Below, in pieces: positions 8,001-40,255 of a stretch of DNA of 64,000 bases. Source of the DNA: Candidatus Melainabacteria bacterium (GTDB lineage: Bacteria; Cyanobacteriota; Vampirovibrionia; 2-02-FULL-35-15). The stretch spans positions 406,661-470,660 of the forward strand of contig JAHFBF010000001.1 of assembly GCA_023250195.1 (NCBI GenBank), in the 5' to 3' direction. A program made the translations under genes and the position numbers. Under the pieces are notes generated by a model, which searched no databases, had not been told where the DNA came from, and saw only the letters and a list, made by a program, of their open reading frames with translations. Positions within the stretch are counted from its first letter, which is position 1, and every line of letters starts with the position of its first letter.

Positions 8001-8604
8001 CAGTAAAAAAGGAACCATTTGGAGTTAACGTTACAATGCTATTCGAGATTTTATTACCAAGCAAATCTTCAACTACAACAAAACCAGAATTTTTTTGACT
8101 CACCATACCAACTACCAGTGTCGGAGTCCGGTAACTAAATGACTCTGTAGAAACATCAAGCATATTACTGACTATTCTTAGCTTGTAATTATCTGTCTGA
8201 AGAGCACTTGGTGGAATAGTTACACCTGATTGTGTTTTAACATTGAATAAGTTTACTGATAAAAATTTGCCATTTTTTTTATTCACTTTTCTGTTCTGTA
8301 ATTTAACTGCATCCTTAGATATGAGGAATTTTTTTGATGGATCTGCTATTGAACTTAAAATAATGGAAACATTATTCAAATCCCCCCTTAAAGTAGATAC
8401 AAGTACGGAATGGAGCGCAATAAACATTTGATCTTCCGTAGAATCTAAGACACTACCGTTAAGAACCTTCTCACCTTTATTATTTATAACTGTTAAAGCT
8501 CCATTGTTTGTGTTTTTTTTCTTAGCCACTGCTTCTGTAGAAAGGCCAAGAGATAAGAAAATCCCCATAAAAAAAGATAAAAATATAAAAGACAGTTTCC
8601 GCAT
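5089..8604 (-). CDS. giant secreted Cys-rich repeat protein with fibronectin type III-like domain; paralog of 991..4977
   Basis: 1171-aa ORF, signal peptide (MRKLSFIFLSFFMGIFLSLGLSTEAVA); N-domain alignable to the neighbour (e.g. TPTLVVGMVSQ / TPALVVGTVDS, FFTEVRAD in both); FN3-like segment TWTDNADNETVFSVYRR...YEYRVVACNANGCS; Cys-rich EGF-like modules. Confidence 0.8.
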   Translation of the reverse strand: MRKLSFIFLSFFMGIFLSLGLSTEAVAKKKNTNNGALTVINNKGEKVLNGSVLDSTEDQMFIALHSVLVSTLRGDLNNVSIILSSIADPSKKFLISKDAVKLQNRKVNKKNGKFLSVNLFNVKTQSGVTIPPSALQTDNYKLRIVSNMLDVSTESFSYRTPTLVVGMVSQKNSGFVVVEDLLGNKISNSIVTLTPNGSFFTEVRADMVKPVNNRNPLRSSLKNQVAEDDLSVGVIHVISDTDLFAITPLDNDPEINGAQADEPLIVNESTTLTANLAKQDEELALEVAKKELENLQSNTGDDTEFGDLNCDINQFADRCDTEDEEAAASLGNDVKNLISNPQCNLPNFVTDFVLSAEEGSIGKGYCEFVGRTEDSSRVCRNYSMVLNDFMVGLVKQLPCPPSECTVFQNIKPPKCVPSKSFCDIDIQSDSCISKPERDLFCLQVPDELSESDCVDDSSASPDEIQPGWVVAENSLGNRYCVPSNPVILSPITGIDSSPGDVAEECEYNFCHRQCENNSPAEIENCHFNCDLDFGEIIDCTDGNSPYFSIQCCNSIKARMASKLSYQAVSSSSASLSNLSTGKISSVPVILDVAACLCRDNNNFDDIGYAYEESKLACNGTCSPGFIKDISGICICPEGQKKDPLTGSCISSTLLGTQCKSPLISNSGGTPSCKCPDSLQYSYLDTCVAACPALLTPQKSSTGLLTCLCSDSSSPDSNGKCSAAQHTCAADEVSNSSNLCKCAGAATKNSNGICQCPSGQTYSASGCTTGSSPRTPTALTAAYSQTYGTILLTWTDNADNETVFSVYRRNYGVSTWTLLTESLSTNTTTYTDNGITSGTSYEYRVVACNANGCSEDSKIVTVTAGSTTYCSPSQASTSSNPCTCASGATVNSNGYCQCTNGQTYAASGCPTPTCTNSQVSTSSNPCNCAGDAMAGSDGTCQCPSGSGPYSSNGCFRAHNCEPGEAYSNLNPCTCTGSATLGSDSTCQCPSGQTYTVASGCTGAANQITLNSVTINGSSVTVNYNKNFSSCVNLVTIHHVAVHSDASVFCGNSSTSPLISKFNSSFQSNLDVKLCNSDLTVCSSVVTTTGTPNCASGQVSTSTNSCTCAGSSYQSSNGCSCNYGNTYDQVNGCICGIGQYDYYNTCVCPTNATKVNGVCVCSDGSNAPVAGCP

Positions 8605-9840: not shown

Positions 9841-10242
9841 ATGAAAAAGAGTTTTAACAAAAGAGCAATTATGTCAGCATTAGCAATTACAGTCGGTGCT
9901 GCCGCCAGCACTTCTGCAGCTGATTTCAGTCTAAAAGAAGTTAATAGCCAGTCCTTACTTATTGCACATGACGGAGAAGCCAAGTGTGGTGAAGGTAAAT
10001 GCGGTGAAAAGAAAGAAACCACTACCAAAGCAAAGGCTGCTGAAGCCAAATGCGGTGAAGGTAAATGTGGTGAAAAAAAAGAAACCACTACCAAAGCAAA
10101 GGCTGCTGAAGCCAAATGCGGTGAAGGTAAATGTGGCAGCAAAAAAGAGAGAAAAACAAAAAAAGAAGCTACTAAAAAAGCAAAAAGTGCTGAAGCCAAA
10201 TGCGGTGAAGGTAAATGCGGCGAAGGCAAAACAAAGAAATAA
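9841..10242 (+). CDS. secreted Cys-Gly repeat protein, candidate HvfA/bufferin-like RiPP metallophore precursor
   Basis: RBS AAGGAG; Sec-type signal peptide (MKKSFNKRAIMSALAITVGAAASTSAA); four tandem copies of EAKCGEGKCGE(KKETTTKAKAA); the core matches EAKCGEGQCG at the end of the small ORF upstream of the MNIO gene at 45292..45444. Confidence 0.6.
   Translation: MKKSFNKRAIMSALAITVGAAASTSAADFSLKEVNSQSLLIAHDGEAKCGEGKCGEKKETTTKAKAAEAKCGEGKCGEKKETTTKAKAAEAKCGEGKCGSKKERKTKKEATKKAKSAEAKCGEGKCGEGKTKK
9978..10230 (+). repeat. about 66-bp tandem coding repeats (4 units) within 9841..10242
   Basis: Units AGCCAA(G/A)TG(T/C)GGTGAAGGTAAATG(C/T)GG... repeated head-to-tail; the opposite-strand ORF 9819..10229 is an artefact of this repeat. 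Confidence 0.85.
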
Positions 10243-21411: not shown

Positions 21412-22731
21412 TTAAAGAAATTTCTTTTTTATGTATTCAAAGTGTGAGTAAGTAAGAAAGAAAAGTAGTTCAATTACAAAAAGTAGCTGATAAAAATATC
21501 TTGATTCAGGCTGGTAGGGAAATGAAACAATAATTACAGAAAGGGGAATTGAAATTAAAAATAAGACCTTACTAATAGGTATAATTTTTTTCTTAAGCGG
21601 GGAATATAGCAGCAAGCTAAAACAGGACATAAACACCATTAACCACTTTGAAATATCTATTAATGGATGGAAATATCTGGCACTTGAAAATCCAGGGAAT
21701 AAGTTTCCAAGAAAGAGTTCCTTTAAATTTAAAACCCGCTCTTTAAGCCAATGAGGATTTTTTTTCATACATTCCCACCCTAAGTCATAAAAATACTTTT
21801 GATCATTTATTGGATGATTTGTTTTAAATGTGGGCCATTCCTTGTGCTTCCAGTTCAGCGGTGGACCAAGCGAAAAATTATGTTTTTTATATGATGAAGA
21901 TAGTCCACGGTATTTACACTGGGCAAGAAAAAAATTTGCTCCTGTACTGTTATGCAGACCGGATACATTTCCTTTTGAAATATAAAATATCTGGGAACTG
22001 GCAATAAAGATGACTAAAAAGAAACCAAGAGAAAAAATCACGCTTTTTACAAGATGACTAATTCCAGACTTCTTTCCGGAAAGTAAAAGATAAAACAAGA
22101 AAGACAGGAAAATTGGAGCTAAGCTGGGCTTTAATGCAACTGTAAATCCAAACACAATGCCACTAAAGAATATTCTCGGGTTTTTATTATTAGAACTGAA
22201 AAGCAAATAAACTGAAAAAATAAAAACAGGGATAGCAATATTTTCTGTAAGTATAAATGCGTTTAAATATATCAATGGATAGCTAAATGCATAAAACAAA
22301 GTAGCAAGCATGGGAATAGGTGATTTATTAATTAGATCTTTAGCAATAAAATAGAAAAACACTATAGAAATAGAAGATAAAAAAATATGAAAAGTTAACA
22401 CACTTTCCAGCAAATGTTTATATAAACCAATAAAAGCAATAATCTTAAAAAGGAATGAAAGATATATTTTAAAAAAAACAGGCCATGCTGCCCAGTGAAA
22501 CATTGAAAAAATATTACCTTCATACATTGCAAGCGCTCTATTCCAATACCCACTCATATCACTTACAAGGTAATGTTTATAATCAGTGAAATAAAAAACA
22601 TAAACAATTCTTGTTATGAATGAAGTAACTACTATTAATGCTAAGTAGTAATAATCTGTGGGCAGTTTCTTTAATCTATCCAGCAAATCATTTTTGTAAG
22701 TTTCTAATTGGGTCATTTGAATCTTAGTCAC
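21412..22731 (-). CDS. polytopic membrane protein, possible GT-C-fold glycosyltransferase (ArnT/PMT-like)
   Basis: 439 aa, about 11 predicted TM helices with loops, resembling glycosyltransferase family 39/83-type topology; no decisive motif read. Confidence 0.4.
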   Translation of the reverse strand: MTKIQMTQLETYKNDLLDRLKKLPTDYYYLALIVVTSFITRIVYVFYFTDYKHYLVSDMSGYWNRALAMYEGNIFSMFHWAAWPVFFKIYLSFLFKIIAFIGLYKHLLESVLTFHIFLSSISIVFFYFIAKDLINKSPIPMLATLFYAFSYPLIYLNAFILTENIAIPVFIFSVYLLFSSNNKNPRIFFSGIVFGFTVALKPSLAPIFLSFLFYLLLSGKKSGISHLVKSVIFSLGFFLVIFIASSQIFYISKGNVSGLHNSTGANFFLAQCKYRGLSSSYKKHNFSLGPPLNWKHKEWPTFKTNHPINDQKYFYDLGWECMKKNPHWLKERVLNLKELFLGNLFPGFSSARYFHPLIDISKWLMVFMSCFSLLLYSPLKKKIIPISKVLFLISIPLSVIIVSFPYQPESRYFYQLLFVIELLFFLTYSHFEYIKKKFL

Positions 22732-22874: not shown

Positions 22875-24785
22875 TTATTTTGTTCTTGCTCTTCTATCTC
22901 TAGTTAATGCAAGATCTTTAGATAATATAGTTCTTTCCGTTGCAAGAACTACTACTGAATTTCCCAAATCTATCATTGAACCTGATAGGGTAAATTTAAC
23001 TGTAATAACCCCGTTTTTATTTACCGTTACCTGTTCATCTCCTTGACTTATGCCGCTTGGGAATACAGTAGCAACAATATCATTGGTGATACTGTTAGCA
23101 GTTTTGTTGTGCAGTCCTTTCCTTGCAGCAACTAAAGAACGACCTCTTAAGGTTATAGTAGCTTTGTTGCCATGATGTACATTCAAAGACAATCTTCTTA
23201 TTACAGTAGGGCTTACAAGAGGATTAAAGTTAATTATCTCAATAATTCCACTTAGTGAGAGTCCATTACTTAAATTAAATGAAAATACTGCATCGCCTGT
23301 ACTGACTGCATTCCCATCTGGTAAAAGCAGAGTAAGAATGTATTTGTTAGGTTCATTAGAAATACTCATTATTTCATACTGAAGATCATTGAATACATTT
23401 CCATTACTGGATGAAAGGCTTAAAGAGAGTATTTCTGTATCTATTAAGGGCAATGAAGACCTAATTTCAAAAGATGGGTTAGAACCAGGATAAGCAGTTC
23501 CAACTTTCCCAATAAACTCATCTGGAATTAATGGAAGTTCAACTGCATTTGGTAGTTTTGGAGTTCCTGTAATATCGATATCATATCCTCTTCCTGCTTC
23601 AAAGCCACCGGAGGAAGAACTAGAAGAGGAACTACTAGAAGAAGAGCCGGAAAATTGGTCTGTTCCTAAATTCCCTGAAGATGAAGTTCCTGGTACACAT
23701 TCCGGGAGATTCGAACAAATTTCTGGATTAAATTCACAGCAGCCAAATATACAGCAGTTGTTTCCGCACATTGTCCATTGACAGTCTGGAACGTTAGATA
23801 TTCCTCCTCCTCCTACAGGTACACAAACTGGGGCAGGATTGTTACAGAGTAGTGCTTCTTGATGACGAATAACTGTTCGAGTAGGTAAATTGTCTCCTAC
23901 TGTACAACAGGCAGGTGTATTCTCTGAACAAGATGGTGAACCTAAAGAAGGGCAAGCAGGAGTAGAACCAGTAGGACATGTTACTGCTCCATCTACACAA
24001 CTTATACCACCTGAAGAAGAACCTCCTGATGATGTAGAACTTGAAGTTGTTGATGATGTTGAGCTTGTTGAACCTGATGTTGAACTTGAAGTGCTTGATG
24101 TTGAGCTTGAAGTGCTTGATGTTGAGCTTGAAGTGCTTGATGTTGAGCTTGTTGATGATGATGTGCTAGAAGAACCATGATGATCATCGTCGTCATCATC
24201 ATGACCGCCTGTTGATGATGTACTACTTGATGTTGAGCTTGTTGATGATGATGTGCTAGAAGAACCATGATCATCATCGTCATCATCATGACCGCCTGTT
24301 GATGATGTACTGCTTGATGTTGAACTTGAAGTGCTTGATGTTGAGCTTGAAGTACTTGATGTTGATGAGTTAGATCCTGAAGTCGATGAGTTGGATCCTG
24401 ATGTTGATGAACTAGAACTTGATGCAGGATCACACTTAACCTTGTCATCACACATTGACATAGAATCACAACAATTTGGTTCTCCATCTATGCAAGATAA
24501 AGTATCCATACCACTACATGATGCTACTTCTCCACTAGTACAAAAAACATTCCCATTGGAACAAAATGCAGTTTCTTTATCTTTCTTTGTCTTTATTGAA
24601 TGTGAAGTTCGTGATATAGAAGTGTAATTTCTATTTCTACCATTTGAATATGCTTGTGCTGCAGAATAATCTTTTGTCTTGAATAGAGCCAGTGTTGGTA
24701 AATTAAGAATTAATATTAAAGTAAGACTAACTAAAAATTTAAAGGCCTTTAATTTGATGTTTTTATTTGATTCTTGATTTTGCAT
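22875..24785 (-). CDS. secreted mucin-like Ser/Thr-rich, Cys-rich repeat protein
   Basis: Start taken at the Met preceded by AAGGA (signal/anchor KAFKFLVSLTLILILNLPTLALF); long (SST/SSS)n tracts, repeated GGHDDDDDDHGSSSTSSS units, Cys-rich blocks at both ends. Confidence 0.7.
   Translation of the reverse strand: MQNQESNKNIKLKAFKFLVSLTLILILNLPTLALFKTKDYSAAQAYSNGRNRNYTSISRTSHSIKTKKDKETAFCSNGNVFCTSGEVASCSGMDTLSCIDGEPNCCDSMSMCDDKVKCDPASSSSSSTSGSNSSTSGSNSSTSSTSSSTSSTSSSTSSSTSSTGGHDDDDDDHGSSSTSSSTSSTSSSTSSTGGHDDDDDDHHGSSSTSSSTSSTSSTSSSTSSTSSSTSSTSSSTSGSTSSTSSTTSSSTSSGGSSSGGISCVDGAVTCPTGSTPACPSLGSPSCSENTPACCTVGDNLPTRTVIRHQEALLCNNPAPVCVPVGGGGISNVPDCQWTMCGNNCCIFGCCEFNPEICSNLPECVPGTSSSGNLGTDQFSGSSSSSSSSSSSSGGFEAGRGYDIDITGTPKLPNAVELPLIPDEFIGKVGTAYPGSNPSFEIRSSLPLIDTEILSLSLSSSNGNVFNDLQYEIMSISNEPNKYILTLLLPDGNAVSTGDAVFSFNLSNGLSLSGIIEIINFNPLVSPTVIRRLSLNVHHGNKATITLRGRSLVAARKGLHNKTANSITNDIVATVFPSGISQGDEQVTVNKNGVITVKFTLSGSMIDLGNSVVVLATERTILSKDLALTRDRRARTK
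24001..24420 (-). repeat. tandem coding repeats (Ser-tract and HD6H units)
   Basis: Repeated GATGTTGAGCTTGAAGTGCTT and CATGATCATCGTCGTCATCATCATGACCGCC blocks; the opposite-strand ORFs 23890..24180, 24002..24487 and 24331..24627 are artefacts. Confidence 0.8.
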
Positions 24786-24950
24786 TTTAATATCCTTAAT
24801 TTCCCTTGAAACTTCTAAAACTACTAGAAGTAAAATCATATGACACAGTTAATACAAAGTCAATAAATCCTAAAAGTTAATTTTAGATCTTAAGCATTAA
24901 TCTTAAACTCTTTATGTTTAGCTTTAGATATATCTATATAAGATTAAAAA

Positions 24951-24980
24951 TTTAGGGTGCACTGTTACATGCACCCTAAA
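24951..24980 (-). terminator. rho-independent terminator downstream of 25016..27964
   Basis: 11-bp stem TTTAGGGTGCA/TGCACCCTAAA with 8-nt loop, followed on the transcript by a U-run; near-identical copy at 28132..28157. Confidence 0.7.
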
Positions 24981-25015: not shown

Positions 25016-27964
25016 CTACTGCCCTGCAGGGAAGTCACAAATTACACGGAAGCCACGAGTACTCCCTGTAGCTGTAGTTTGATTTCTAAAGTCTGCTGTA
25101 ATAGGCGATGTAGCATCACTGGTTGAAGTATAATTTCCTCCACGAGTTATTGCATATTGAGCATCAGTACTATCCGTAAACAGTTTACCGCTATTCTTAC
25201 CACCATTTAAGTCAGCAGTAGCTCCAGATTGTGTTGGAAGACCTGATCCTTCAAAGTCTATGTCTACAGCAGCAGCACCACCTGCAATATCCTGAAAATT
25301 AAAGACACTGTTGTTTGTTGTAAATGGCAGTACTATTCCAGCTCCTGGATAGCCAGAATCAACTATAAAATCTGAACCACCAGACATAGAAGAATTTGTA
25401 ATCGTAAGGTCTCCCCATTCTTCTACATTACCAATCAAGTCATATACCTGCTTATCACCATCAAATGCACTATTTGAGTTAGTTACATCATCAGCTATTG
25501 CACTGGATGCAAATGTAGTACCATCAGTATTCTTAGTAGCTGAACCATCCAAAATATGTCCCCAGCTTTTAAAGCCAGTACCAGTTAAACATCTATCTCC
25601 AGTACCACTTTGATTTGGATCATCAGCACATTGGAATGAAGCACTATTTCTTAGATCTCTGTTTCCATCCCTGGTATTTCCTCTTTCATTCCAACCATTT
25701 GTAGCGGTTGCACCAAAGATGCTTTTTTGTTTTGCAAATCTGCCCAGTATATAAAGTGCTGTCCATTCCTTATTTCCAATAAGTTTACACGATCCTAAAG
25801 ATGAAATTTGGGCACTGGAAGCAGATGCGTTTGCTTTTGCAGTTGAGTGGCTTATGTTAGTCCAAGGTACTACATTTCTCTGACTGACAGGAATAGAAGA
25901 ACTGCCCTCTGCGGTAGCAGTAGCATCTGCTTTTGATGCTTCATATTTATTAATCCAGAAACCCCCAAAAACAATTCCATTAATAATAAATCTTGGTATT
26001 CTTACCATTCTTGTTGTACAAAGTGAAGATGGTGATACATCACATGAGCTTGTTGAGAAGGTCTTTTCATCTGAGTATGAATTCCAGCTAGAGGAAACTT
26101 CCTGAACTGTAGGAATATCATTTGCTCCTTGGCAGTCAGCCACTGTACATGACCCACTTACGTTTATATCTTCAGTAGCTGTATCACATGAACCATTGCC
26201 GTTTAAATCCCAGCAATTTAAACCATTAGTTCCATTGGTACCGTTAGTTCCGTTGGTTCCATTTGCTCCATTAGTCCCATTGGTTCCATTTGCTCCGTTG
26301 GTTCCATTAGTTCCATTACAGACATAATTTGTTGCTGTGACTTCACCGGAATCTAAAGTATTGTCATTATTTGAATCAAGCCCTGATTCTACTTTCTTGC
26401 CACCAGTAGAACAATTTGTTCCTGCTGATTCTGTAGTAATCTTTACCAAACTGTTTAAACCATTAGTTCCATTGGTACCGTTAGTTCCGTTGGTTCCATT
26501 TGCTCCATTAGTTCCGTTAGTTCCGTTAGTTCCATTGGTTCCATTACAGACATAATTTGTTGCTGTGACTTCACCGGAATCTAAAGTATTGTCATTATTT
26601 GAATCAAGCCCTGATTCTACTTTCTTGCCACCAGTAGAACAATTTGTTCCTGCTGATTCTGTAGTAATCTTTACCAAACTGTTTAAACCATTGGTTCCAT
26701 TGGTACCGTTAGTTCCATTGGCTCCGTTTGCTCCATTGCAGACAAAAGATGTTGAACTTACTTCACCAGAATCAAGCACACTATTTCCATTAGCATCAAG
26801 ACCAACTTCTATTTTTCTTCCACCTGTTGCACAATTTGCTCCGGCTGATTCTGTGGTTGATTTTGTAAGTGCATTATTTCCACCCATTCCATCACTACCA
26901 TTGCTTCCTGCATTTCCAGCAGTTCCAAGTGGAATAGTAAAAGTCAGGTTACAAAGAACCGGATCAAAAAACGCATCAGCCTTTGTCCCTGGTGCACCAT
27001 TATTTGCTGAGATCATTAATAATGCATTTAGATCATTACAGACACCCATACCATCCATGCCATTAATCCCATCCATTCCATCCATAATTACAACGGTAGG
27101 GATAGTTTCAGGAGACAAACTATTTGTTCCAAGGGTCTGATTATTTACAAATACTCCACCTACAATAGTTACTGTTGAGTTAAGAATCGGACTTGTAATA
27201 GTTATATCTCTAGATCCAACTGGAGCATCACTTTTCGGAGTAGCTAACACATCCAAAGTTGAATCATCTAAAGCTATAGTCTCTCTTACAGTAATATCAT
27301 TATTGCTGAATGAAACTTCTGTAAATGCATCTAATCCTTTACCTTTAATTGTAAGTTTATTTTCTACCCCGGCCTTTAGATCCCGTGTTATTGAATCAAG
27401 CCTAAACTCAGGTAGAGTAAACACAATCGTGTCAGCAGAATCATTGCCATCAACAGTAGCTCTTAAAGTATATTGGCCTGGTTTTAACCCTTTTACAAAA
27501 ATTTTGAATATTTTAAAGTCCAGGGCCTGAACTATTGAGCTTTGATTTTGAGTTTTATTTAAATTAAACGTAACTGATTGATTTTTTGTAACTATTTTAT
27601 TTTTACCTGTTTTTATTAAGTTTTGATCTTCTCTAAGCTCTGATATTCTAAATATCTTTAATCCAGTCATTAAAAGTGTGGCATTGTCAATTCCAAGACC
27701 TGTTCCCTGTGCACCAATAACTTCTACTTTTACAACCATTGCATCAGGCTTAAGTAACAGATCCAGGGATACTCTTTGATCAAGTTCTATATTATTCCTG
27801 TTATATCTGAATGCCGGCAATAAATTAGCTGATATTCTCTCTTGAGAAATTGTACTTCTGGCTTTTACTGCATAAATATTAACTGCATAAGCAGCACCGC
27901 TTTGATTCAGCAGAAGTACAGCTATTAATACAACCTTACATAGAAGACTTAACTTATTTTTCAT
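25016..27964 (-). CDS. giant secreted protein: conserved N-domain, Gly-Thr-Asn triplet tracts, Asp-rich repeat modules, C-terminal FGE-sulfatase (SUMF1)-like domain
   Basis: Signal peptide; N-terminal 330 aa nearly identical to 28187..32443; (GTN)n tracts; about 45-aa modules ...TESAGTNCSTGGKKVESGLDSNNDNTLDSGEVTATNYVCNG; C-terminal FGE-type motifs MVRIPRF...WINKYEAS, NKEWTALYILG, QVYDLIGNVEEW, TRGGNY...GFRVICD. Confidence 0.85.
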   Translation of the reverse strand: MKNKLSLLCKVVLIAVLLLNQSGAAYAVNIYAVKARSTISQERISANLLPAFRYNRNNIELDQRVSLDLLLKPDAMVVKVEVIGAQGTGLGIDNATLLMTGLKIFRISELREDQNLIKTGKNKIVTKNQSVTFNLNKTQNQSSIVQALDFKIFKIFVKGLKPGQYTLRATVDGNDSADTIVFTLPEFRLDSITRDLKAGVENKLTIKGKGLDAFTEVSFSNNDITVRETIALDDSTLDVLATPKSDAPVGSRDITITSPILNSTVTIVGGVFVNNQTLGTNSLSPETIPTVVIMDGMDGINGMDGMGVCNDLNALLMISANNGAPGTKADAFFDPVLCNLTFTIPLGTAGNAGSNGSDGMGGNNALTKSTTESAGANCATGGRKIEVGLDANGNSVLDSGEVSSTSFVCNGANGANGTNGTNGTNGLNSLVKITTESAGTNCSTGGKKVESGLDSNNDNTLDSGEVTATNYVCNGTNGTNGTNGTNGANGTNGTNGTNGTNGLNSLVKITTESAGTNCSTGGKKVESGLDSNNDNTLDSGEVTATNYVCNGTNGTNGANGTNGTNGANGTNGTNGTNGTNGLNCWDLNGNGSCDTATEDINVSGSCTVADCQGANDIPTVQEVSSSWNSYSDEKTFSTSSCDVSPSSLCTTRMVRIPRFIINGIVFGGFWINKYEASKADATATAEGSSSIPVSQRNVVPWTNISHSTAKANASASSAQISSLGSCKLIGNKEWTALYILGRFAKQKSIFGATATNGWNERGNTRDGNRDLRNSASFQCADDPNQSGTGDRCLTGTGFKSWGHILDGSATKNTDGTTFASSAIADDVTNSNSAFDGDKQVYDLIGNVEEWGDLTITNSSMSGGSDFIVDSGYPGAGIVLPFTTNNSVFNFQDIAGGAAAVDIDFEGSGLPTQSGATADLNGGKNSGKLFTDSTDAQYAITRGGNYTSTSDATSPITADFRNQTTATGSTRGFRVICDFPAGQ
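26221..26317 (-). repeat. hexanucleotide (GTTCCR/TTGGTN) tract encoding (Gly-Thr-Asn)n
   Basis: CCATTAGTTCCATTGGTACCGTTAGTTCCGTTGGTTCC...; further tracts at 26458..26548 and 26688..26740; the opposite strand reads PLVPLVP (artefact ORFs 26337..26555, 26565..27140). Confidence 0.85.
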
Positions 27965-28131: not shown

Positions 28132-28157
28132 TAGGGTGCACTGTTACATGCACCCTA
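28132..28157 (-). terminator. rho-independent terminator downstream of 28187..32443
   Basis: TAGGGTGCA-CTGTTACA-TGCACCCTA hairpin, duplicate of 24951..24980. Confidence 0.7.
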
Positions 28158-28186: not shown

Positions 28187-31100
28187 TTAGAAGTCACAGA
28201 TTACACGGAATCCACGACGCTCGTCAGTAGTAGTAGTCACATCATTACCATCAATTATAAGTGGTGAAGGAGCACTGGCACCATCATTACAAGCACCACC
28301 ACGAGTTATACCGTATTGTGCATCTGTTGTAGTTGTAGAAAGAGTTCCTGAATTCTTCCCGCCATTTGTATCATTCAAGCCACCATTTGCAGTAGCAGGA
28401 AGTCCAAGTCCACTAAAAGTAGATGATGTTGATATATCTATAGAGTTAAAGATCGCTCCATCTGTCGTAAATGGAAGCACTGATCCTGCTCCTGTATAGC
28501 CAGTATCAACTACAAAGTCTGAGCCAGACATGGTAGAAGAATTTGTAAAAGTATAGTCAATCCATTCTTTTACATTTCCAACAAGATCATAGACCTGTTT
28601 ATCACCATCCAAAGTATCAGCACCTGATCCACCATTGTCATCTTTAACAGCATCTGCTGTACTACCAAGTGAAGTACCTGTCGCATTTATAGTAGCTGAA
28701 CCATCTAAAAGATGTCCCCAGCTCTTATAACCTGTTCCAGTTAAGCAGACATCGCCAGTACCACTTTGATCTGGATCATCTTCACATACAGATGAACCAC
28801 TATCTCTGCCATCTCTGTTTCCATTTCTGGTATTCCCTCTTTCATTCCAACCGTTTGTAGCAGTTGAACCAAAGAGTCCTGTACTTTTTGCAACTTTACC
28901 AAGAATATAAAGAGCAGTCCACTCTTTCATTCCTATAAGTCTGCATGAACCAATACCAGTAATTTGTCTATTTAAACTAGATGCATTTGTCTTTGCAGTA
29001 GCCTGACTTATGTTTGTCCATGGCTCTACTCTACGTTGGCTTACAGGTACACTAGAAGTTCCTTGATCTGTTGCTGTAGCATTTGCTCTAGAAGCTTCAT
29101 ACTTGTCTATCCAGAAACCACCATACTCTACACCTTTATAAGTAAACTTTGGTATTTTTACCATTCTAGTCATACTGCTCATGTCATTTGTAGTGTAGTT
29201 TACTTCATCAGATAAAGTATTCCAGTTATTCACCAAACCGATAATTGCTGCTTCCTGGCAATCATCAGCTGTATATAAACCGTCATTATTTACATCTTCA
29301 GCTGCATCATTTACACCATCTTCATCTACATCCCAGCAGTTAATTCCATTAGTTCCATTTGAACCATTGGTTCCGTTTGTACCATTAATTCCATTACAGA
29401 CATAGCTGGTAGAAGCGATTTCACCACCAGTTAGCATATTGTCATTATTTGCATCAATACCGGCTTCCACTTTCTGACCGCCAGCTGTACAGTTTGCACC
29501 TGAACCTTCAGATGTTACAACAACTAAGCTAGTTGAGCCATTGGTTCCGTTAGTACCATTAGTTCCATCAGTTCCAGCACAATCAGCAACGTCTACTACA
29601 GTATCACCATTTAGATCTTCAGTTGCTACATCACCTACTCCATTATTATTTAAATCCCAGCAGGCTTGTCCGTTGGTTCCATTAGTACCGTTAGTTCCAT
29701 TAGTTCCGTTGGTTCCGTTAGTACCATTGGTTCCGTTTGTACCATTAGTTCCATCAGTTCCAGCACAATCAGCAACGTCTACTACAGTATCACCATTTAG
29801 ATCTTCAGTTGCTACATCACCTACTCCATTATTATTTAAATCCCAGCAGGCTTGTCCATTGGTTCCGTTGGTTCCGTTAGTTCCATTGGTTCCGTTAGTT
29901 CCGTTAGTTCCGTTGGTTCCGTTAGTTCCATTAGTTCCGTTGGTTCCGTTTGTACCATTGGCTCCATTACAGACATAGTTTGTAGAAGTAATTTCACCAC
30001 CAGCTAAAGAACCATTATTATTTGTATCCAGTCCAGATTCTACTTTTTTCCCACCATTAGCACAATTTGCACCAGCTGATTCTGTAGTAACCTTTACCAA
30101 GCTGTTCAAACCGTTGGTTCCATTTGTACCATTAGTTCCGTTGGTTCCGTTTGTACCATTGGCTCCATTGCAGACATAGTTTGTAGAAGTAATTTCACCA
30201 CCAGCTAAAGAACCATTGCCATTTGTATCTATTCCAGATTCTACTTTCTTTCCACCATTAGCACAATTTGCACCGGCTGATTCTGTAGTAATCTTTACCA
30301 AACTGTTCAAGCCATTGGTTCCGTTAGTTCCGTTAGTACCATTAGTTCCATTTGTACCGTTGCATACATAAGTAGTTGATGTAATTTCTCCTCCACTTAA
30401 AGAACCATTGCCATTTGTATCAACCCCACTCTGTATCTTCTTTCCACCATTAGCACAGTTTCCACCTGGGTTTTCATTTGAGGATGTTACAAGTGTTTGT
30501 AAACCATTGCAAACATATGATGTAGCATCAACTTCTCCCGAGTCAAGAGTACTATCACCATCATCATCTACTCCTACCTGAATTTTTCTTCCACCGTTTG
30601 CACAGTTTCCACCTGGGTTTTCATTTGAGGATGTAATTAAACTGTTTGATCCATTACATGCATAAGTCGTAGAGTCTATTTCACCTGCATCAAGTGTGTT
30701 ATCTCCATCATCATCTACTCCTACGCGAATCTTTCTACCACCGCTTGGACAGTTTGCTCCAGATGGTTCGCTTGAAGATGTAATTAAACTGTTTGATCCG
30801 TTACATGCATAGGTTGTAGAGTCTATTTCACCTGCATCAAGTGTGTTATCTCCATCATCATCTACTCCTACGCGAATCTTTCTACCACCGCTTGGACAGT
30901 TTGCTCCAGATGGTTCGCTTGAAGATGTAATTAAACTGTTTGATCCGTTACATGCATAAGTCGTAGACTCAACTTCTCCAAGATCAAGAACATTGTCTCC
31001 GTCATCATCTACTCCTGCCTGAAATTTTCTACCACCACTTGGACAGTTTGCTCCGGATGGTTCGCTTGAGGATGTAATTAAACTGTTTGATCCATTACAT

Positions 31101-32443
31101 GCATAGGTCGTTGATGTAATTTCTCCACTATCAAGAACACCACTTCCATCAGTGTCAGTACCAACTTCAAACTTTTGCCCACCGCTTGGACAGTTTGCTC
31201 CGGATGGTTCGCTTGATGTATTAGTTAAACTATTTTCACCTGCAGGAATACCAAGAACTAAAGTACACAAAATAGAATTAAAAGTAGTAGTAGCTGCTAA
31301 ACCTGGCGCAAGGGTAACATTTGAAATTACAAGTGTTGCATTCATATCATCACAAACACCCATTCCATCAGATCCATTACTTCCATTAATTCCATTAAAA
31401 CCTACAGGAATGCTGAAAGTAAGGTTACAAAGAACTGGATCAAAAAACACATCAGACATTGAACCTGGGATTCCATTGTTTGTAGTAATCATTAATAAAG
31501 CATTCATATCATCACAAACACCCATTCCATCCACGCCATTCATACCATCCATAATTACAACAGATGGATTAATGTTTGCATTATCAGGAGATAAACCATT
31601 TGTTCCAAGGGTCGGATTATTTACAAGTACTCCATTTACTATAGTGACCGTATTGCCAGTAAGCGGACTTGTAATAGTTACATCTCTATAACCATTTGGG
31701 GCATTACTTGTTGAAGTTGCCAATACCTTTAAAGTAGAATCATCTAAAGCTATGGTATCTCTTACAGTAATATCACCATTGCTGAATGAAACTGCTGTTA
31801 ATGCATCCAATCCTTTTCCTAGAAGTGTAAGTGTAGTTTCAACACCGGGATTTATAACTGATGGGGTTACTGCATCCAGTCTAAAGTTTGGCCTTGTAAA
31901 CACAATCGTGTCAGTAGAATCATTATCATCAATAGTAGCTCTTACAGTATATTGGCCAGGAAGACGTCCTTTTACAAATACTTTGAATATTTTAAAGTCC
32001 AGAGCCTGAACTATTAAGCTTTGATTTTGAGTTTTATTTAAATTAAAAGTAACTGATTGATTTTTTGTAACTATTTTGTTCTTGCCTGTTTTTGTCAACT
32101 TTTGATCTTCTCTAAGCTCTGATGTTCTAAATATCTTTAATCCACCCATTAAAAGTGTGGAATTATCAATTCCAAGGCCTGTTCCCTGTGCACCAATAAC
32201 TTCTACTCTTACAACCATTGCATCAGGCTTAAGTAACAGATCCAGGGGTATTCTTTGATCAAGTTCTATATTATTCCTGTCATATCTGAATGCCGGCAAT
32301 AAATTAGCTGATACTCTCTCTTGAGAGATTGTAGTTTTGGTTTTAACTGCATAAATATTAACTGCATAAGCAGCACCGGTTTGATTCAGCAGAAGTGCAG
32401 CTATTAACACAACCCTACATAGAAAGCTTAATTTATTTTTCAT
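28187..32443 (-). CDS. giant secreted protein, paralog of 25016..27964 (expanded repeat modules, C-terminal FGE-sulfatase-like domain)
   Basis: 1418 aa; same signal peptide and N-domain; at least 7 tandem 45-aa modules SLITSSSEPSGANCPSGGRKxxVGVDDDGDNTLDAGEIDSTTYACNGSN (three nearly identical); (GTN)n tracts up to 13 triplets; duplicated CWDLNNNGVGDVATEDLNGDTVVDVADC units; C-terminal YDLVGNVKEW / GFRVICDF. Confidence 0.85.
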   Translation of the reverse strand: MKNKLSFLCRVVLIAALLLNQTGAAYAVNIYAVKTKTTISQERVSANLLPAFRYDRNNIELDQRIPLDLLLKPDAMVVRVEVIGAQGTGLGIDNSTLLMGGLKIFRTSELREDQKLTKTGKNKIVTKNQSVTFNLNKTQNQSLIVQALDFKIFKVFVKGRLPGQYTVRATIDDNDSTDTIVFTRPNFRLDAVTPSVINPGVETTLTLLGKGLDALTAVSFSNGDITVRDTIALDDSTLKVLATSTSNAPNGYRDVTITSPLTGNTVTIVNGVLVNNPTLGTNGLSPDNANINPSVVIMDGMNGVDGMGVCDDMNALLMITTNNGIPGSMSDVFFDPVLCNLTFSIPVGFNGINGSNGSDGMGVCDDMNATLVISNVTLAPGLAATTTFNSILCTLVLGIPAGENSLTNTSSEPSGANCPSGGQKFEVGTDTDGSGVLDSGEITSTTYACNGSNSLITSSSEPSGANCPSGGRKFQAGVDDDGDNVLDLGEVESTTYACNGSNSLITSSSEPSGANCPSGGRKIRVGVDDDGDNTLDAGEIDSTTYACNGSNSLITSSSEPSGANCPSGGRKIRVGVDDDGDNTLDAGEIDSTTYACNGSNSLITSSNENPGGNCANGGRKIQVGVDDDGDSTLDSGEVDATSYVCNGLQTLVTSSNENPGGNCANGGKKIQSGVDTNGNGSLSGGEITSTTYVCNGTNGTNGTNGTNGTNGLNSLVKITTESAGANCANGGKKVESGIDTNGNGSLAGGEITSTNYVCNGANGTNGTNGTNGTNGTNGLNSLVKVTTESAGANCANGGKKVESGLDTNNNGSLAGGEITSTNYVCNGANGTNGTNGTNGTNGTNGTNGTNGTNGTNGTNGTNGQACWDLNNNGVGDVATEDLNGDTVVDVADCAGTDGTNGTNGTNGTNGTNGTNGTNGTNGTNGQACWDLNNNGVGDVATEDLNGDTVVDVADCAGTDGTNGTNGTNGSTSLVVVTSEGSGANCTAGGQKVEAGIDANNDNMLTGGEIASTSYVCNGINGTNGTNGSNGTNGINCWDVDEDGVNDAAEDVNNDGLYTADDCQEAAIIGLVNNWNTLSDEVNYTTNDMSSMTRMVKIPKFTYKGVEYGGFWIDKYEASRANATATDQGTSSVPVSQRRVEPWTNISQATAKTNASSLNRQITGIGSCRLIGMKEWTALYILGKVAKSTGLFGSTATNGWNERGNTRNGNRDGRDSGSSVCEDDPDQSGTGDVCLTGTGYKSWGHLLDGSATINATGTSLGSTADAVKDDNGGSGADTLDGDKQVYDLVGNVKEWIDYTFTNSSTMSGSDFVVDTGYTGAGSVLPFTTDGAIFNSIDISTSSTFSGLGLPATANGGLNDTNGGKNSGTLSTTTTDAQYGITRGGACNDGASAPSPLIIDGNDVTTTTDERRGFRVICDF
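29670..29970 (-). repeat. hexanucleotide tracts encoding (Gly-Thr-Asn)n plus duplicated about 190-bp unit
   Basis: GTTGGTTCCATTAGTACCGTTAGTTCC... tracts at about 29670..29760 and 29858..29970 flanking duplicated ...CAGCACAATCAGCAACGTCTACTACAGTATCACC... units; the opposite-strand ORF 29541..29978 is an artefact. Confidence 0.85.
30470..31210 (-). repeat. tandem about 135-bp coding repeats (45-aa Asp-rich modules)
   Basis: Repeated ...TCCACCTGGGTTTTCATTTGAGGATGT... and ...GGACAGTTTGCTCC(A/G)GATGGTTCGCTTGA(A/G)GATGTAATTAAACTGTTTGATCC... blocks; boundaries approximate. Confidence 0.75.
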
Positions 32444-39643: not shown

Positions 39644-40255
39644 ATGAAATTAAAACAAATGATCCGGGTCTTTTTTATTCTGTTAATTATCTTTGGTCAT
39701 TTAAGCGATGCTTATGCATTTTCTAATTGTCAGGTGAAATATGACAGTGATAAGAGAGCTCTGCCGGCACTAAAAGGAATGTGTAATGTATGCCATTTAA
39801 GTGCAAACGGCAGTGGTCCACAGAATGAATTTGGAGTTGCCTTTAAAAATGCTGGTTTTAAAATCACTAATGATCTTGTAGCAAAATTTCCTGACTTCTT
39901 TCAGAAGCAGGTCTTAGATAATCTTCCCTCAGGTTCTACCTCAAGCAGTGGAGAAATTTTAAATAATCCTACTTCAGGTTCCACCTCAAGCAGTGGAGAA
40001 GCCCTGAAACCTGTTATAAGCAGAATAAAACCAGGCAAAGTAAAAACAAATGTTCAAACAATGATTTCAATAATGGGAAAGAATTTTGTCAACGGTGCAA
40101 AAACATTTGTAGACAATAATGAAGCTATAACTACATTTAAATCAAATGTTTTATTATTTGCAGATTTTATTTTAAATACAGTAGGCAAGCATGAAGTAAA
40201 AGTACAAAATCCTGATGAGCAGGAATCGAATACAGTTAAGGTAAAATCGAAGTAA
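39644..40255 (+). CDS. secreted protein with CxxCH motif (possible monoheme c-type cytochrome) and Ig-like C-terminal domain
   Basis: Signal peptide; KGMCNVCHLSANG contains CxxCH; two SGSTSSSGE repeats; C-terminal beta-rich segment. Confidence 0.45.
   Translation: MKLKQMIRVFFILLIIFGHLSDAYAFSNCQVKYDSDKRALPALKGMCNVCHLSANGSGPQNEFGVAFKNAGFKITNDLVAKFPDFFQKQVLDNLPSGSTSSSGEILNNPTSGSTSSSGEALKPVISRIKPGKVKTNVQTMISIMGKNFVNGAKTFVDNNEAITTFKSNVLLFADFILNTVGKHEVKVQNPDEQESNTVKVKSK

Follow-up and report, generated by a model that had tools for sequence, protein, structure and literature searches.

Two tandem paralogous genes on the minus strand of a groundwater Melainabacterium encode uninterrupted Gly-X-Y runs of 5–13 triplets, mainly Gly-Thr-Asn. 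These (GTN)n runs are collagen-like in sequence, a point missed in an initial description of this DNA made from its letters and open reading frames (the sequence-only reading). The genes lie within a stretch of 64,000 nucleotides, hereafter the window. With a probability of roughly 0.7, we consider the runs to be spacer or stalk segments that vary in length, their coding DNA being a degenerate minisatellite with in-frame polymorphism as in BclA, Scl and Lcl. In-frame variation in the repeat number of collagen-like regions is an established way of tuning the reach and binding of such surface proteins; the present case adds to this pattern the Melainabacteria, the non-photosynthetic sister group of the Cyanobacteria, as well as DUF7151, an uncharacterised family in which triplet indels are the dominant length polymorphism across several phyla. 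This dominance would make the tracts ready-made strain-tracking markers for groundwater metagenomes. No new mechanism is revealed, and the locus is no classical on/off contingency switch.

Modular architecture of the paralogous genes

Gene A (28187..32443, minus strand) and gene B (25016..27964, minus strand) were taken as open reading frames with their translations of 1418 and 982 amino acids, large but not the giant genes they had been called. Their N-terminal domains share 79% identity and their C-terminal domains 62%. A Sec-type signal peptide can be read by eye in both translations, and the two products appear to be duplicated, modular, Sec-exported proteins. In gene A, the signal peptide is followed by an N-terminal domain of about 290 residues, short Gly-X-Y bits and the repeat region, and about 377 residues at the end form the C-terminal domain. 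The repeat region contains nine DUF7151 repeats and two Cys-bounded "CWD" modules, with (GTN)n tracts; gene B has three DUF7151 repeats and three (GXN)n tracts. The match to Pfam DUF7151 (PF23657) is 480.3 bits for gene A (E = 1.1e-147, nine stretches) and 185.2 bits for gene B (three stretches), with a gathering cutoff of 27.2; Pfam Collagen (PF01391) is matched with 58.4 and 36.1 bits, respectively (gathering cutoff 27.2). Pfam and NCBIfam profile searches found no known trimerisation domain in either protein, and exact look-ups of both returned no record. Gene A is followed by a terminator-like hairpin and T-run (28132..28157, minus strand); the same hairpin sequence follows gene B (24951..24980).

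The DUF7151 module is a mini-domain of about 46 residues with two invariant cysteines and a D-x-N-x-N-G-x-L-x-x-x-E loop, after which comes a short Gly-X-Y run. When compared with the 12-residue EF-hand-type loop pattern D-x-[DN]-x-[DN]-G-x-[ILV]-x-x-x-E, Asp25, Leu32 and Glu36 are invariant in 76 DUF7151 modules, at the canonical 1/8/12 spacing of an EF-hand loop. Many homologs carry precomputed Collagen and EF-hand Pfam matches; a Pfam search of the window's own proteins gave no EF-hand match at E ≤ 0.1. The loop residues suggest that these beads probably bind calcium. An AlphaFold2 model of the module has three strands and a pLDDT of 91, and in the same monomeric prediction the Gly-X-Y tail has no regular secondary structure, with confidence dropping along its length.

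The first five DUF7151 repeats of gene A (30500..31231, minus strand) form a 147-nt tandem repeat without a tract; the junctions among them are reduced to CNG-S/N-SL, one triplet each. Since these five repeats do without it, the tract is dispensable between modules. The last repeat lies at 29393..29530 (minus strand). The first CWD module (29762..29848, minus strand; CWDLNNNGVGDVATEDLNGDTVVDVADC in translation) is bounded by cysteines, rich in Asp and Asn, and contains calcium-loop-like motifs; the second (29576..29662, minus strand) is identical to it in DNA. A plus-strand open reading frame across this region, 29541..29978, was rejected as a shadow frame within the repeat.

The C-terminal domain of gene A (28190..29320, minus strand) contains the motifs GFWIDKYEAS, RGG and GFRV. 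Its score against PF03781, 18.7 bits, is below the cutoff of 23.3; 15 of 18 orthologs give hits of this kind (best E = 6.7e-6), and one homolog carries a precomputed PF03781 match. A PDB profile search with the domain gave no sequence match, and its AlphaFold2 model (pLDDT 43) was unusable. Given a sub-threshold match, we describe the domain as divergent FGE-sulfatase-like, or SUMF1-like.

With E ≤ 1e-10 as the limit, at least 735 proteins match gene B; their sources are named Ekhidna, Myxococcota, Sandaracinus, Pelomonas and Melainabacteria. Proteins of the DUF7151 family bear only family or generic names in these sources. The module is common to genes A and B and the other members, while the terminal domain varies: RCC1, BNR or Ig-like elsewhere, FGE-like in the two genes of the window. 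Literature searches returned no paper mentioning DUF7151, nor one dealing with collagen-like proteins together with Melainabacteria; a more general search yielded papers on eukaryotic repeats only.

The Gly-X-Y tracts and their coding DNA

Every tract is preceded by C-N-G and terminates at G-L-N-S-L, starting with the glycine that follows the closing Cys-Asn of a DUF7151 mini-domain or CWD module. Gene A contains six tracts and gene B three, all encoded on the minus strand. The longest, at 29849..29965, follows the eighth DUF7151 repeat and has 13 triplets (GAN, eleven GTN and GQA), the maximum the sequence-only reading had given. The tract at 29663..29761, after the first CWD module, has 11 (GTD, nine GTN and GQA), and that at 29531..29575, after the second, has five. 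Seven triplets are found at 30104..30166, six at 30305..30358 and six at 29339..29392, after the last DUF7151 repeat. In gene B, the tracts at 26216..26314, 26453..26542 and 26681..26734 contain 11, 10 and six triplets. The sequence-only reading had placed tracts at 29670..29970, an interval in which the 11- and 13-triplet tracts of gene A are indeed found, and at three sites in gene B, where they were also located; it was likewise right that copy numbers differ between the paralogs (13, 11, 7, 6, 6 and 5 in gene A; 11, 10 and 6 in gene B). The first CWD module is the non-repeat stretch mid-way in that interval. When all junctions of gene A are considered, their length ranges from one to 13 triplets, five modules being without a tract.

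The repeat unit in the DNA is GGN-ACN-AAY, 9 nt long and hence a multiple of three, as had been stated, with some higher-order units of 18 and 27 nt. Tandem Repeats Finder (TRF) reports periods of 9, 18 and 27 only, with scores of 97–165, far above chance; for the 13-triplet tract the period is 27, with 4.2 copies and 90% matches. Self-identity is 0.69–0.79 at lag 9 and about 0.2 at lags 3 and 6. The TRF periods and the lag-6 value together rule out the hexamer period that had been proposed. Nor are the arrays near-perfect. Only two of 39 adjacent GTN units are identical, where 4.8 are expected from a shuffle; synonymous sites are scrambled, with at most two consecutive identical 9-mers, and the longest perfect period-9 run is 26 nt. 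Identity at lag 9 is 0.740, compared with 0.754 after shuffling (p = 0.91), so that the order of units cannot be distinguished from a shuffled one. For comparison, the perfect-unit counterpart of the 13-triplet tract would be written (GGAACTAAC)13.

Because the units are scrambled, their order is shuffle-like and the longest perfect run is so short, the periodicity of the DNA is about that imposed by the amino-acid repeat alone. Tests of adjacent-unit identity and of lag structure detected no single-unit slippage signature in the window; with neither order-dependent similarity nor enrichment of identical neighbours, there is no sign of recent slippage of this kind. The interruptions between units should slow misalignment. 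Codon usage in the tracts differs from the background: GGA makes up 67% versus 36–39%, ACC 37% versus 8–11% and AAC 43% versus 23–25%. The tract codon spectrum also differs by lineage (chi-square 143.9, df 42, p = 4e-13), while background usage is alike across lineages. These codon patterns speak for turnover of the tracts at the DNA level. We read the coding DNA of the tracts as a degenerate 9-nt minisatellite.

Length change among module copies, populations and species

Several comparisons between closely similar copies place length differences in the tracts. In the window itself, the copies compared are recently duplicated modules. In gene B, two modules with identical DUF7151 DNA (141 of 141 nt) are followed by tracts of different length, 11 triplets at 26216..26314 and 10 in the tract of the preceding module. 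In gene A, the two CWD modules have 99 nt of domain DNA that are 100% identical and are then followed by 11 and 5 triplets, respectively. Between orthologous loci, L002 and L024 (Rifle samples Ga0156089 and Ga0156182) differ over 16.8 kb by 10 SNPs and a sole internal indel of 27 nt, located in an orthologous tract, and L010 and L027 (nzgw191 and ERZ27276474) differ over 18,741 nt by one SNP and by the presence or absence, in a tract, of a single perfect GGAGCAACAGGAGTGACA unit, an 18-nt indel that is again the sole internal one; both near-identical pairs are short-read metagenome assemblies, in which the differences could be within-sample heterogeneity or assembler choice instead of fixed alleles. 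L003 and L017, which are 91% identical, have a single coding indel, again of 18 nt and in a tract. The pairs L001/L012, L002/L013, L006/L021 and L008/L019 were 100% identical over the compared stretch, and for L002/L013 and L008/L019 the contigs also agree in length; the pairs were taken as the same deposits and are therefore uninformative.

The same tendency was observed more widely. Four clusters of DUF7151 proteins at ≥90% identity contain 18 internal indels, of which 11 are located in Gly-X-Y tracts that make up 11.5% of the residues (binomial p ≈ 7e-7), and all of these tract indels are multiples of three amino acids. Without exception, the tract indels observed have lengths divisible by 9 nt and leave the reading frame unchanged. 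These data support gain or loss of whole triplets as a change that would alter protein length in frame, in the orthologs and in the wider family. Slippage without frameshift, as put forward in the sequence-only reading, is in this way supported in its outcome, by module copies, near-identical pairs, clusters and orthologs, but the window bears no signature of slippage by single units.

For genes A and B themselves, near-identical relatives were absent from the collections searched: the best matches are 54–57% identical in the protein database, at most 60% in the genome collection and at most 61% in the metagenome collection. The same species is present in ENA ERZ27280176, only as a 1.8-kb contig covering the open reading frame 21412..22731. 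Polymorphism of the window's own tracts is extrapolated from orthologs that are 51–61% identical in the C-terminal domain. The C-terminal domain of gene B is 78.7% identical to that of the gene in L002, and, judged by this domain, gene B is orthologous to the one gene that L002 has in the syntenic place; synteny indicates that the locus is duplicated in the genome studied here, compared with the single gene in L002.

Tract lengths vary among species. Melainabacterial modules (n = 45) have 1–16 triplets, and other tracts reach 22. Modules from other phyla (n = 74) mostly have 1–6 triplets, with mixed X and Y residues (Ser, Thr or Ala; Asp or Asn) and strict glycine periodicity. In the Melainabacteria clade, by comparison, the runs have been homogenised to GTN and lengthened, the longest having 22 triplets.

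Probable spacer segments and alternative readings

In the reading we prefer, the tracts would set the spacing of small, putative calcium-binding beads, and also how far the N-terminal domain lies from the FGE-sulfatase-like domain at the C-terminus. Misalignment between units in replication or recombination may add or remove whole triplets, and misalignment of the longer, 147–228-nt module repeats may add or remove whole modules. Populations would then be expected to be polymorphic in length, always in frame, and species to differ widely, a behaviour familiar from the collagen-like regions of BclA, Scl1/Scl2 and Lcl. Any functional effect of tract length is conjecture, as no trimerisation domain, anchor or ligand is known. 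The host-guest peptide data of Persikov et al. (2000) reportedly place Thr at X and Asn at Y among the poor triple-helix formers, which weakens the case for a true collagen structure of (GTN)n.

Being collagen-like, the tracts place this case with the known length-polymorphic bacterial collagen-like proteins: both genes match Pfam Collagen, and in-frame triplet differences occur between close strains in the orthologs and the wider family. Legionella strains differ, in frame, in the Gly-X-Y repeat number of Lcl, and this number tunes binding and biofilm formation; Lcl resembles the proteins of the window in its signal peptide, its central Gly-X-Y region and a C-terminal domain without close relatives, and their orthologs in its polymorphism of repeat number (PMC6460258). 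In Lcl the collagen-like region is single and long, and experiments have demonstrated its triple helix and a binding that depends on its length, whereas genes A and B have six and three short tracts with a degenerate 9-mer unit, placed between DUF7151 or CWD mini-domains. The architecture of bacterial collagen-like proteins has been described (PMC7743900). The surface proteins BclA of Bacillus anthracis and Scl1/Scl2 of streptococci resemble genes A and B in their uninterrupted, Thr-rich Gly-X-Y sequence (GPT in BclA), and their triplet number is strain-variable; the NCBIfam SclB and SclA models match weakly, with 36 bits against a cutoff of 325. Sylvestre et al. (2003) reportedly found that strains differ in triplet number, which determines how long the stalk carrying the C-terminal globular domain is. 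The collagen-like region of BclA and Scl is one continuous stretch, and their trimerising domain is known; genes A and B have several short tracts without Pro, whose Thr-Asn composition is predicted to form helices poorly, and their products have no LPXTG or exosporium anchor.

The tracts might instead be flexible low-complexity linkers, a neutral by-product whose length drifts through repeat instability, with no triple helix and no adaptive role; this is possible, but we hold it to be clearly the less probable account. The spread from one to 13 triplets within one protein and the tract-free junctions of five modules fit it well, as do the irregular AlphaFold2 tail with its falling confidence, the low triple-helix propensity of GTN and the wide variation of ortholog lengths, without obvious pattern. 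However, the strict glycine periodicity persists in non-repetitive tracts of distant homologs with varying X and Y residues, which argues for a constraint on the protein, in a collagen- or PPII-like conformation. Drift would also have to account for orthologs of the same family with classical Pro- and charge-rich tracts, such as GPQGPQGLPGEQG, and for a Thr-Asn composition conserved across melainabacterial species that are 50–60% identical, despite turnover of the tract DNA.

The sequence-only reading had seen in the tracts potential contingency sites. A true contingency locus would consist of hypermutable tracts, kept by second-order selection and changing at about 1e-5 or more per division, and would yield surface variants able to evade phage, grazers or the defences of prey; we regard this as unlikely. 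Simple-sequence-repeat contingency loci, known from the work of Moxon and colleagues and from Neisseria, Haemophilus and Campylobacter, have pure tracts of 1–8-nt units that mutate at 1e-5 to 1e-2 per division, and it is a frameshift or an altered promoter spacing that switches their expression. The resemblance lies in tandem repeats within the gene of an exported protein and in length change that here, too, would arise by strand misalignment. In agreement with selection for variation, tract indels are the only indels between the near-identical populations, the gene diverges faster than its neighbours (59–62% identity in the C-terminal domain, 78–96% in the flanking proteins), the locus is duplicated and the protein has a signal peptide as read by eye. 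Against this, the tracts are not pure or near-pure arrays of a short unit but imperfect 9-mers in shuffle-like order, and since their 9-nt changes within an open reading frame keep the frame, no length-dependent on/off switching of expression results. With one tract indel per 1–10 SNPs in 17–19 kb as calibration, the two events suggest a per-tract indel rate about 1e3–1e4 times the per-site substitution rate. This would amount, as a rough estimate, to 1e-7 to 1e-6 per generation, orders of magnitude under phase-variation rates.

A broader proposal is that DUF7151-(Gly-X-Y)n forms a widespread beads-on-a-string stalk which, in Melainabacteria, would have become a fibre, glycosylated and tunable in its length, through which cells or prey are contacted; it is a long shot. 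The phylum of the Melainabacteria includes predatory members. The beads would be disulfide-stapled and look calcium-binding, have no solved structural relative and alternate with collagen-like segments; members of the family would be polymorphic mainly in triplet number, and the melainabacterial segments are expanded Asn-Gly-Thr sequon arrays, which in this genome adjoin a GT-C glycosyltransferase candidate.

That the tracts are dense glycosylation arrays, in which N-X-T sequons and threonines let tract length set the glycan load, seems quite improbable. The collagen-like region of BclA is Thr-glycosylated, every GTN unit forms an N-G-T sequon, and, in this window only, two genes are inserted beside gene B: one, at 21412..22731, for a candidate PMT_2-like GT-C membrane glycosyltransferase with homologs that carry PF13231, the other, at 22875..24839, for a secreted poly-Ser/Thr protein. 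The frame 21412..22731 itself gave no sequence match in Pfam or PDB. Orthologous loci lack the PMT_2-like gene, though, and its homologs in two other genomes occur in unrelated contexts, not beside DUF7151 genes. In distant DUF7151 homologs the sequon-free triplets G-A-D or G-S-D are common, and no oligosaccharyltransferase or HMW1C-like enzyme was found among the open reading frames scanned, those outside 43.7–61.5 kb.

Mis-assembly of tandem repeats from short reads, as the source of the tract-length differences and perhaps of the tract and module numbers of the window, is very improbable: every compared locus is a metagenome assembly, and the window contains 100% identical repeats of 99–141 nt or more that short-read assemblers could collapse or expand, but the polymorphic tracts, of about 72–126 nt, are shorter than the reads (the L027 tract being shorter than the 141-mer of its assembly), the indels are exact multiples of 9 nt with the frame intact, and the pattern recurs in independent clusters from many sources, isolate genomes included. 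The contigs of L003, L004, L009, L016 and L017 end within the repeat region, and the tracts are a likely cause of such assembly breaks.

Tandem paralogs with collagen-like tracts

The interval 29670..29970 lies within gene A (28187..32443, minus strand, 1418 amino acids), and its paralog, gene B (25016..27964, 982 amino acids), is located directly downstream on the same strand. Both proteins open with a Sec-type signal peptide (MKNKLSFLCRVVLIAALLLNQTGAAYA, read by eye), followed by an N-terminal domain of about 290 residues, short Gly-X-Y pieces, an array of DUF7151 repeats (Pfam PF23657; nine stretches in A, E=1.1e-147, and three in B) and a C-terminal domain of about 380 residues. Terminator-like hairpins of the same sequence, GC-rich and with a T-run (TAGGGTGCATGTAACAGTGCACCCTA), are present on the minus strand after A (28132..28157) and after B (24951..24980); the tandem duplication therefore took in the terminator.

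The (GTN)n tracts are Gly-X-Y runs without interruption, each starting with the glycine right after the Cys-Asn that closes a DUF7151 repeat or a second mini-domain bounded by Cys, the CWD module. They match Pfam Collagen with scores of 58.4 bits in A and 36.1 bits in B, above the gathering score of 27.2. The tracts of gene A contain 6, 7, 13, 11, 5 and 6 Gly-X-Y triplets and those of gene B 6, 10 and 11, confirming the sequence-only reading as to the tracts, their coordinates, the unlike copy numbers in the paralogs and the maximum of 13 triplets. The interval 29670..29970 takes in the tracts of 13 and 11 triplets with the 29-residue CWD module between them; the first five DUF7151 repeats of gene A are not followed by a tract.

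Searching the genome collection with the C-terminal domain yielded 11 loci, ten titled as Candidatus Melainabacteria MAGs, mostly from groundwater (51-60% identity), and one, L011, titled as an uncultured Gammaproteobacteria MAG (52% identity over this domain). A further 15 loci, none above 61% identity, came from the metagenome collection. The flanking genes are syntenic with those of L002, the orthologous locus in the Rifle MAG RIFCSPLOWO2_02_FULL_35_15, at 78-96% amino-acid identity. This places the window in a related Melainabacterium, in keeping with a GC content of about 35%. At the syntenic position, L002 contains only one gene, with one DUF7151 repeat, where the window contains A and B plus two inserted ORFs (21412..22731 and 22875..24839). 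B and L002 share 78.7% identity in the C-terminal domain, in which A is 61.7% identical to both; over the N-terminal domain, A and B are 79% identical. A and B are thus mosaic paralogs, which suggests gene conversion or domain shuffling. Set against the 78-96% identity of its neighbours, the gene evolves much faster than they do, suggesting a fast-evolving terminal domain; the central region is especially plastic. The C-terminal domain is probably a divergent FGE-sulfatase-like domain, as PF03781 matches it below threshold in 15 of 18 orthologs and its GFWxDKYE, RGG and GFRV motifs agree with FGE-sulfatase. Neither a PDB sequence search with this domain nor its AF2 model gave anything usable.

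Period, purity and codon use of the tract DNA

The DNA unit of the tracts is GGN-ACN-AAY. At lag 9 the tract DNA has a self-identity of 0.69-0.79, compared with about 0.2 at lags 3 and 6, and TRF reports periods of 9, 18 and 27, none of 6; the hexanucleotide unit proposed earlier can thus be discarded. The arrays, described as near-perfect in the sequence-only reading, are not so: the 48 GTN units comprise nine distinct 9-mers, identical neighbours are rare (2 of 39 pairs, against 4.8 ± 1.9 expected from codon shuffling) and the longest perfect period-9 run measures 26 nt. Reordering the units of each tract at random reveals no order signal at lag 9 (identity 0.740 observed, 0.754 shuffled, p=0.91), with only a marginal rise at lags 18 and 27 (p=0.105 and p=0.08). 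The periodicity of the tract DNA is thus about that imposed by a Gly-Thr-Asn repeat alone. The one clear higher-order feature, reported by TRF, lies in the longest tract (29855..29968), which has a 27-nt period at 90% identity.

Codon use in the tracts departs from the window background, with more GGA for glycine (67% versus 36-39%), more ACC and less ACA for threonine (37% versus 8-11% and 10% versus 44-47%, respectively) and more AAC for asparagine (43% versus 23-25%). The preferred unit is lineage-specific despite similar background usage (heterogeneity test, chi-square 143.9, df 42, p=4e-13). Among orthologous loci, tract threonine codons are only ACA and ACG in L004, ACA and ACG in L008, there with glycine codons GGT and GGC, and mostly ACT in L007. 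We read the codon bias and the lineage-specific units as concerted evolution, in which amplification and loss would give the units of a genome a recent common ancestry, to be blurred later by point changes.

In-frame length change and the role of the tracts

The proposal that tract length changes without frameshift is supported by comparison of modules, near-identical loci, family clusters and species. All comparisons rest on metagenome assemblies, and those between genomes are among relatives of the window's species. Modules 2 and 3 of gene B are identical at 141 of 141 bases over the DUF7151 repeat, and their tracts contain 10 and 11 triplets; the five substitutions between them are all within the tract. 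In the CWD modules of gene A, an identical 99-nt domain is followed by 11 triplets in one case and 5 in the other. Across 16.8 kb, the orthologous loci L002 and L024, from different Rifle assemblies, show 10 SNPs and a single internal indel, which is 27 nt (three triplets) long and lies in a tract. Over 18,741 nt, L010 (MAG nzgw191) and L027 (ENA ERZ27276474) differ by one SNP and one 18-nt indel, a perfect GGAGCAACAGGAGTGACA unit within a tract, and the sole coding indel between L003 and L017, which are 91% identical, is likewise 18 nt long and within a tract. In four DUF7151 clusters of at least 90% identity with members of unequal length, 11 of 18 internal indels fall within Gly-X-Y tracts, which make up 11.5% of residues (binomial p=7e-7), and all 11 are multiples of three amino acids. 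The 12 full-length members of one cluster show just 3 variable columns, yet two single-triplet indels are segregating. Among melainabacterial orthologs, the number of modules ranges from 1 to 5 and tract length from 1 to 22 triplets.

Such length changes would result if a tract misaligned in its 9-, 18- and 27-nt registers, or if the module repeats of 147-228 nt misaligned with one another. The 18-nt indel between L010 and L027 corresponds to a perfect unit; the 27-nt one between L002 and L024 does not. Roughly calibrated from two events only (one tract indel per 1-10 SNPs over 17-19 kb), the per-tract indel rate would be about 1e3-1e4 times the per-site substitution rate, high for indels but far below phase variation. 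The label of contingency locus is not supported: unlike SSR contingency loci, the tracts of A and B are impure and are without expression switching.

BclA and Scl1/Scl2 are the classic polymorphic collagen-like regions. Relatives of A and B share a polymorphic Gly-X-Y region with such bacterial surface proteins (Lcl, BclA, Scl1/Scl2), but in A and B the tracts are short and numerous and alternate with mini-domains. A and B do not belong to the Lcl, BclA or Scl families; NCBIfam Scl scores are far under the cutoffs. In Legionella Lcl, isolates differ in the number of Gly-X-Y repeats, and binding and biofilm formation scale with that number (PMC6460258); the general architecture of bacterial collagen-like proteins has been described (PMC7743900). 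Length-polymorphic collagen-like regions are already known; here they occur in a phylum that has been little studied and in a protein family that is still uncharacterised.

Most likely, the tracts are collagen-like spacers or stalk segments whose length can be adjusted, within a secreted protein of the beads-on-a-string type. The AF2 model of the DUF7151 bead is a three-stranded unit (pLDDT 91), followed by a Gly-X-Y tail without regular secondary structure, along which confidence drops; no solved structural relative of the bead was found. Residues C13, G16, G17, G23, D25, L32, E36, C44 and G46 are invariant in 76 aligned modules. The modules fit a canonical EF-hand loop in their D/L/E spacing (1/8/12) and in their consensus, D-x-N-x-N-G-x-L-D-x-x-E, and many homologs have precomputed EF-hand Pfam matches, making calcium binding by the bead likely. 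The tracts may also form a triple helix, given that the glycine periodicity is strict in distant homologs even though X and Y vary, and that same-family orthologs contain classical Pro-, Gln- and charge-rich tracts. However, those of A and B are short and missing from some junctions, no trimerisation domain is recognised in either protein, and Thr at X and Asn at Y have a low triple-helix propensity in host-guest data.

Other open reading frames in the window

A 439-residue polytopic membrane protein (21412..22731, minus strand) is inserted beside gene B. It has no Pfam or PDB sequence match of its own; 9 of 11 homologs have a precomputed match to PF13231 (PMT_2, GT-C glycosyltransferase). Tblastn gave no match to it in the orthologous loci, including L002, and in two other genomes its homologs are unlinked to DUF7151 genes; ENA ERZ27280176 holds a fragment 100% identical to it. 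The neighbouring 654-residue ORF (22875..24839, minus strand) contains Cys-rich segments, long (SSSTSST)n runs and repeated GGHDDDDDDH motifs, and by eye its product looks secreted. It has no family match, and tblastn against the orthologous loci, L002 included, revealed no counterpart beyond a single weak and partial match in L011. Tandem repeats of 21, 42 and 87 nt at 24027..24424 encode its protein repeats, and it is a candidate further site for in-frame length variation and glycosylation.

Two large ORFs on the minus strand are without (GTN)n tracts: 991..4977 (1328 amino acids) has no family match and 5089..8604 (1171 amino acids) a single weak fn3 match. The 133-residue ORF at 9841..10242 (plus strand) combines a signal peptide with four EAKCGEGKCGE repeats; a 66-nt tandem DNA repeat at 9976..10136 encodes the latter. 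Scoring 59.6 bits with NCBIfam KCGExKCG_twice (cutoff 19.5) and 74.3 bits with HvfA (cutoff 95), the product looks like an HvfA-family precursor of an oxazolone/thioamide RiPP metallophore; no MNIO/DUF692 partner was recognised among the scanned neighbours. Finally, a 203-residue ORF with a weak IPT/TIG match (39644..40255, plus strand) contains a small in-frame 45-nt tandem repeat at 39914..40000 (1.9 copies, 88% matches).
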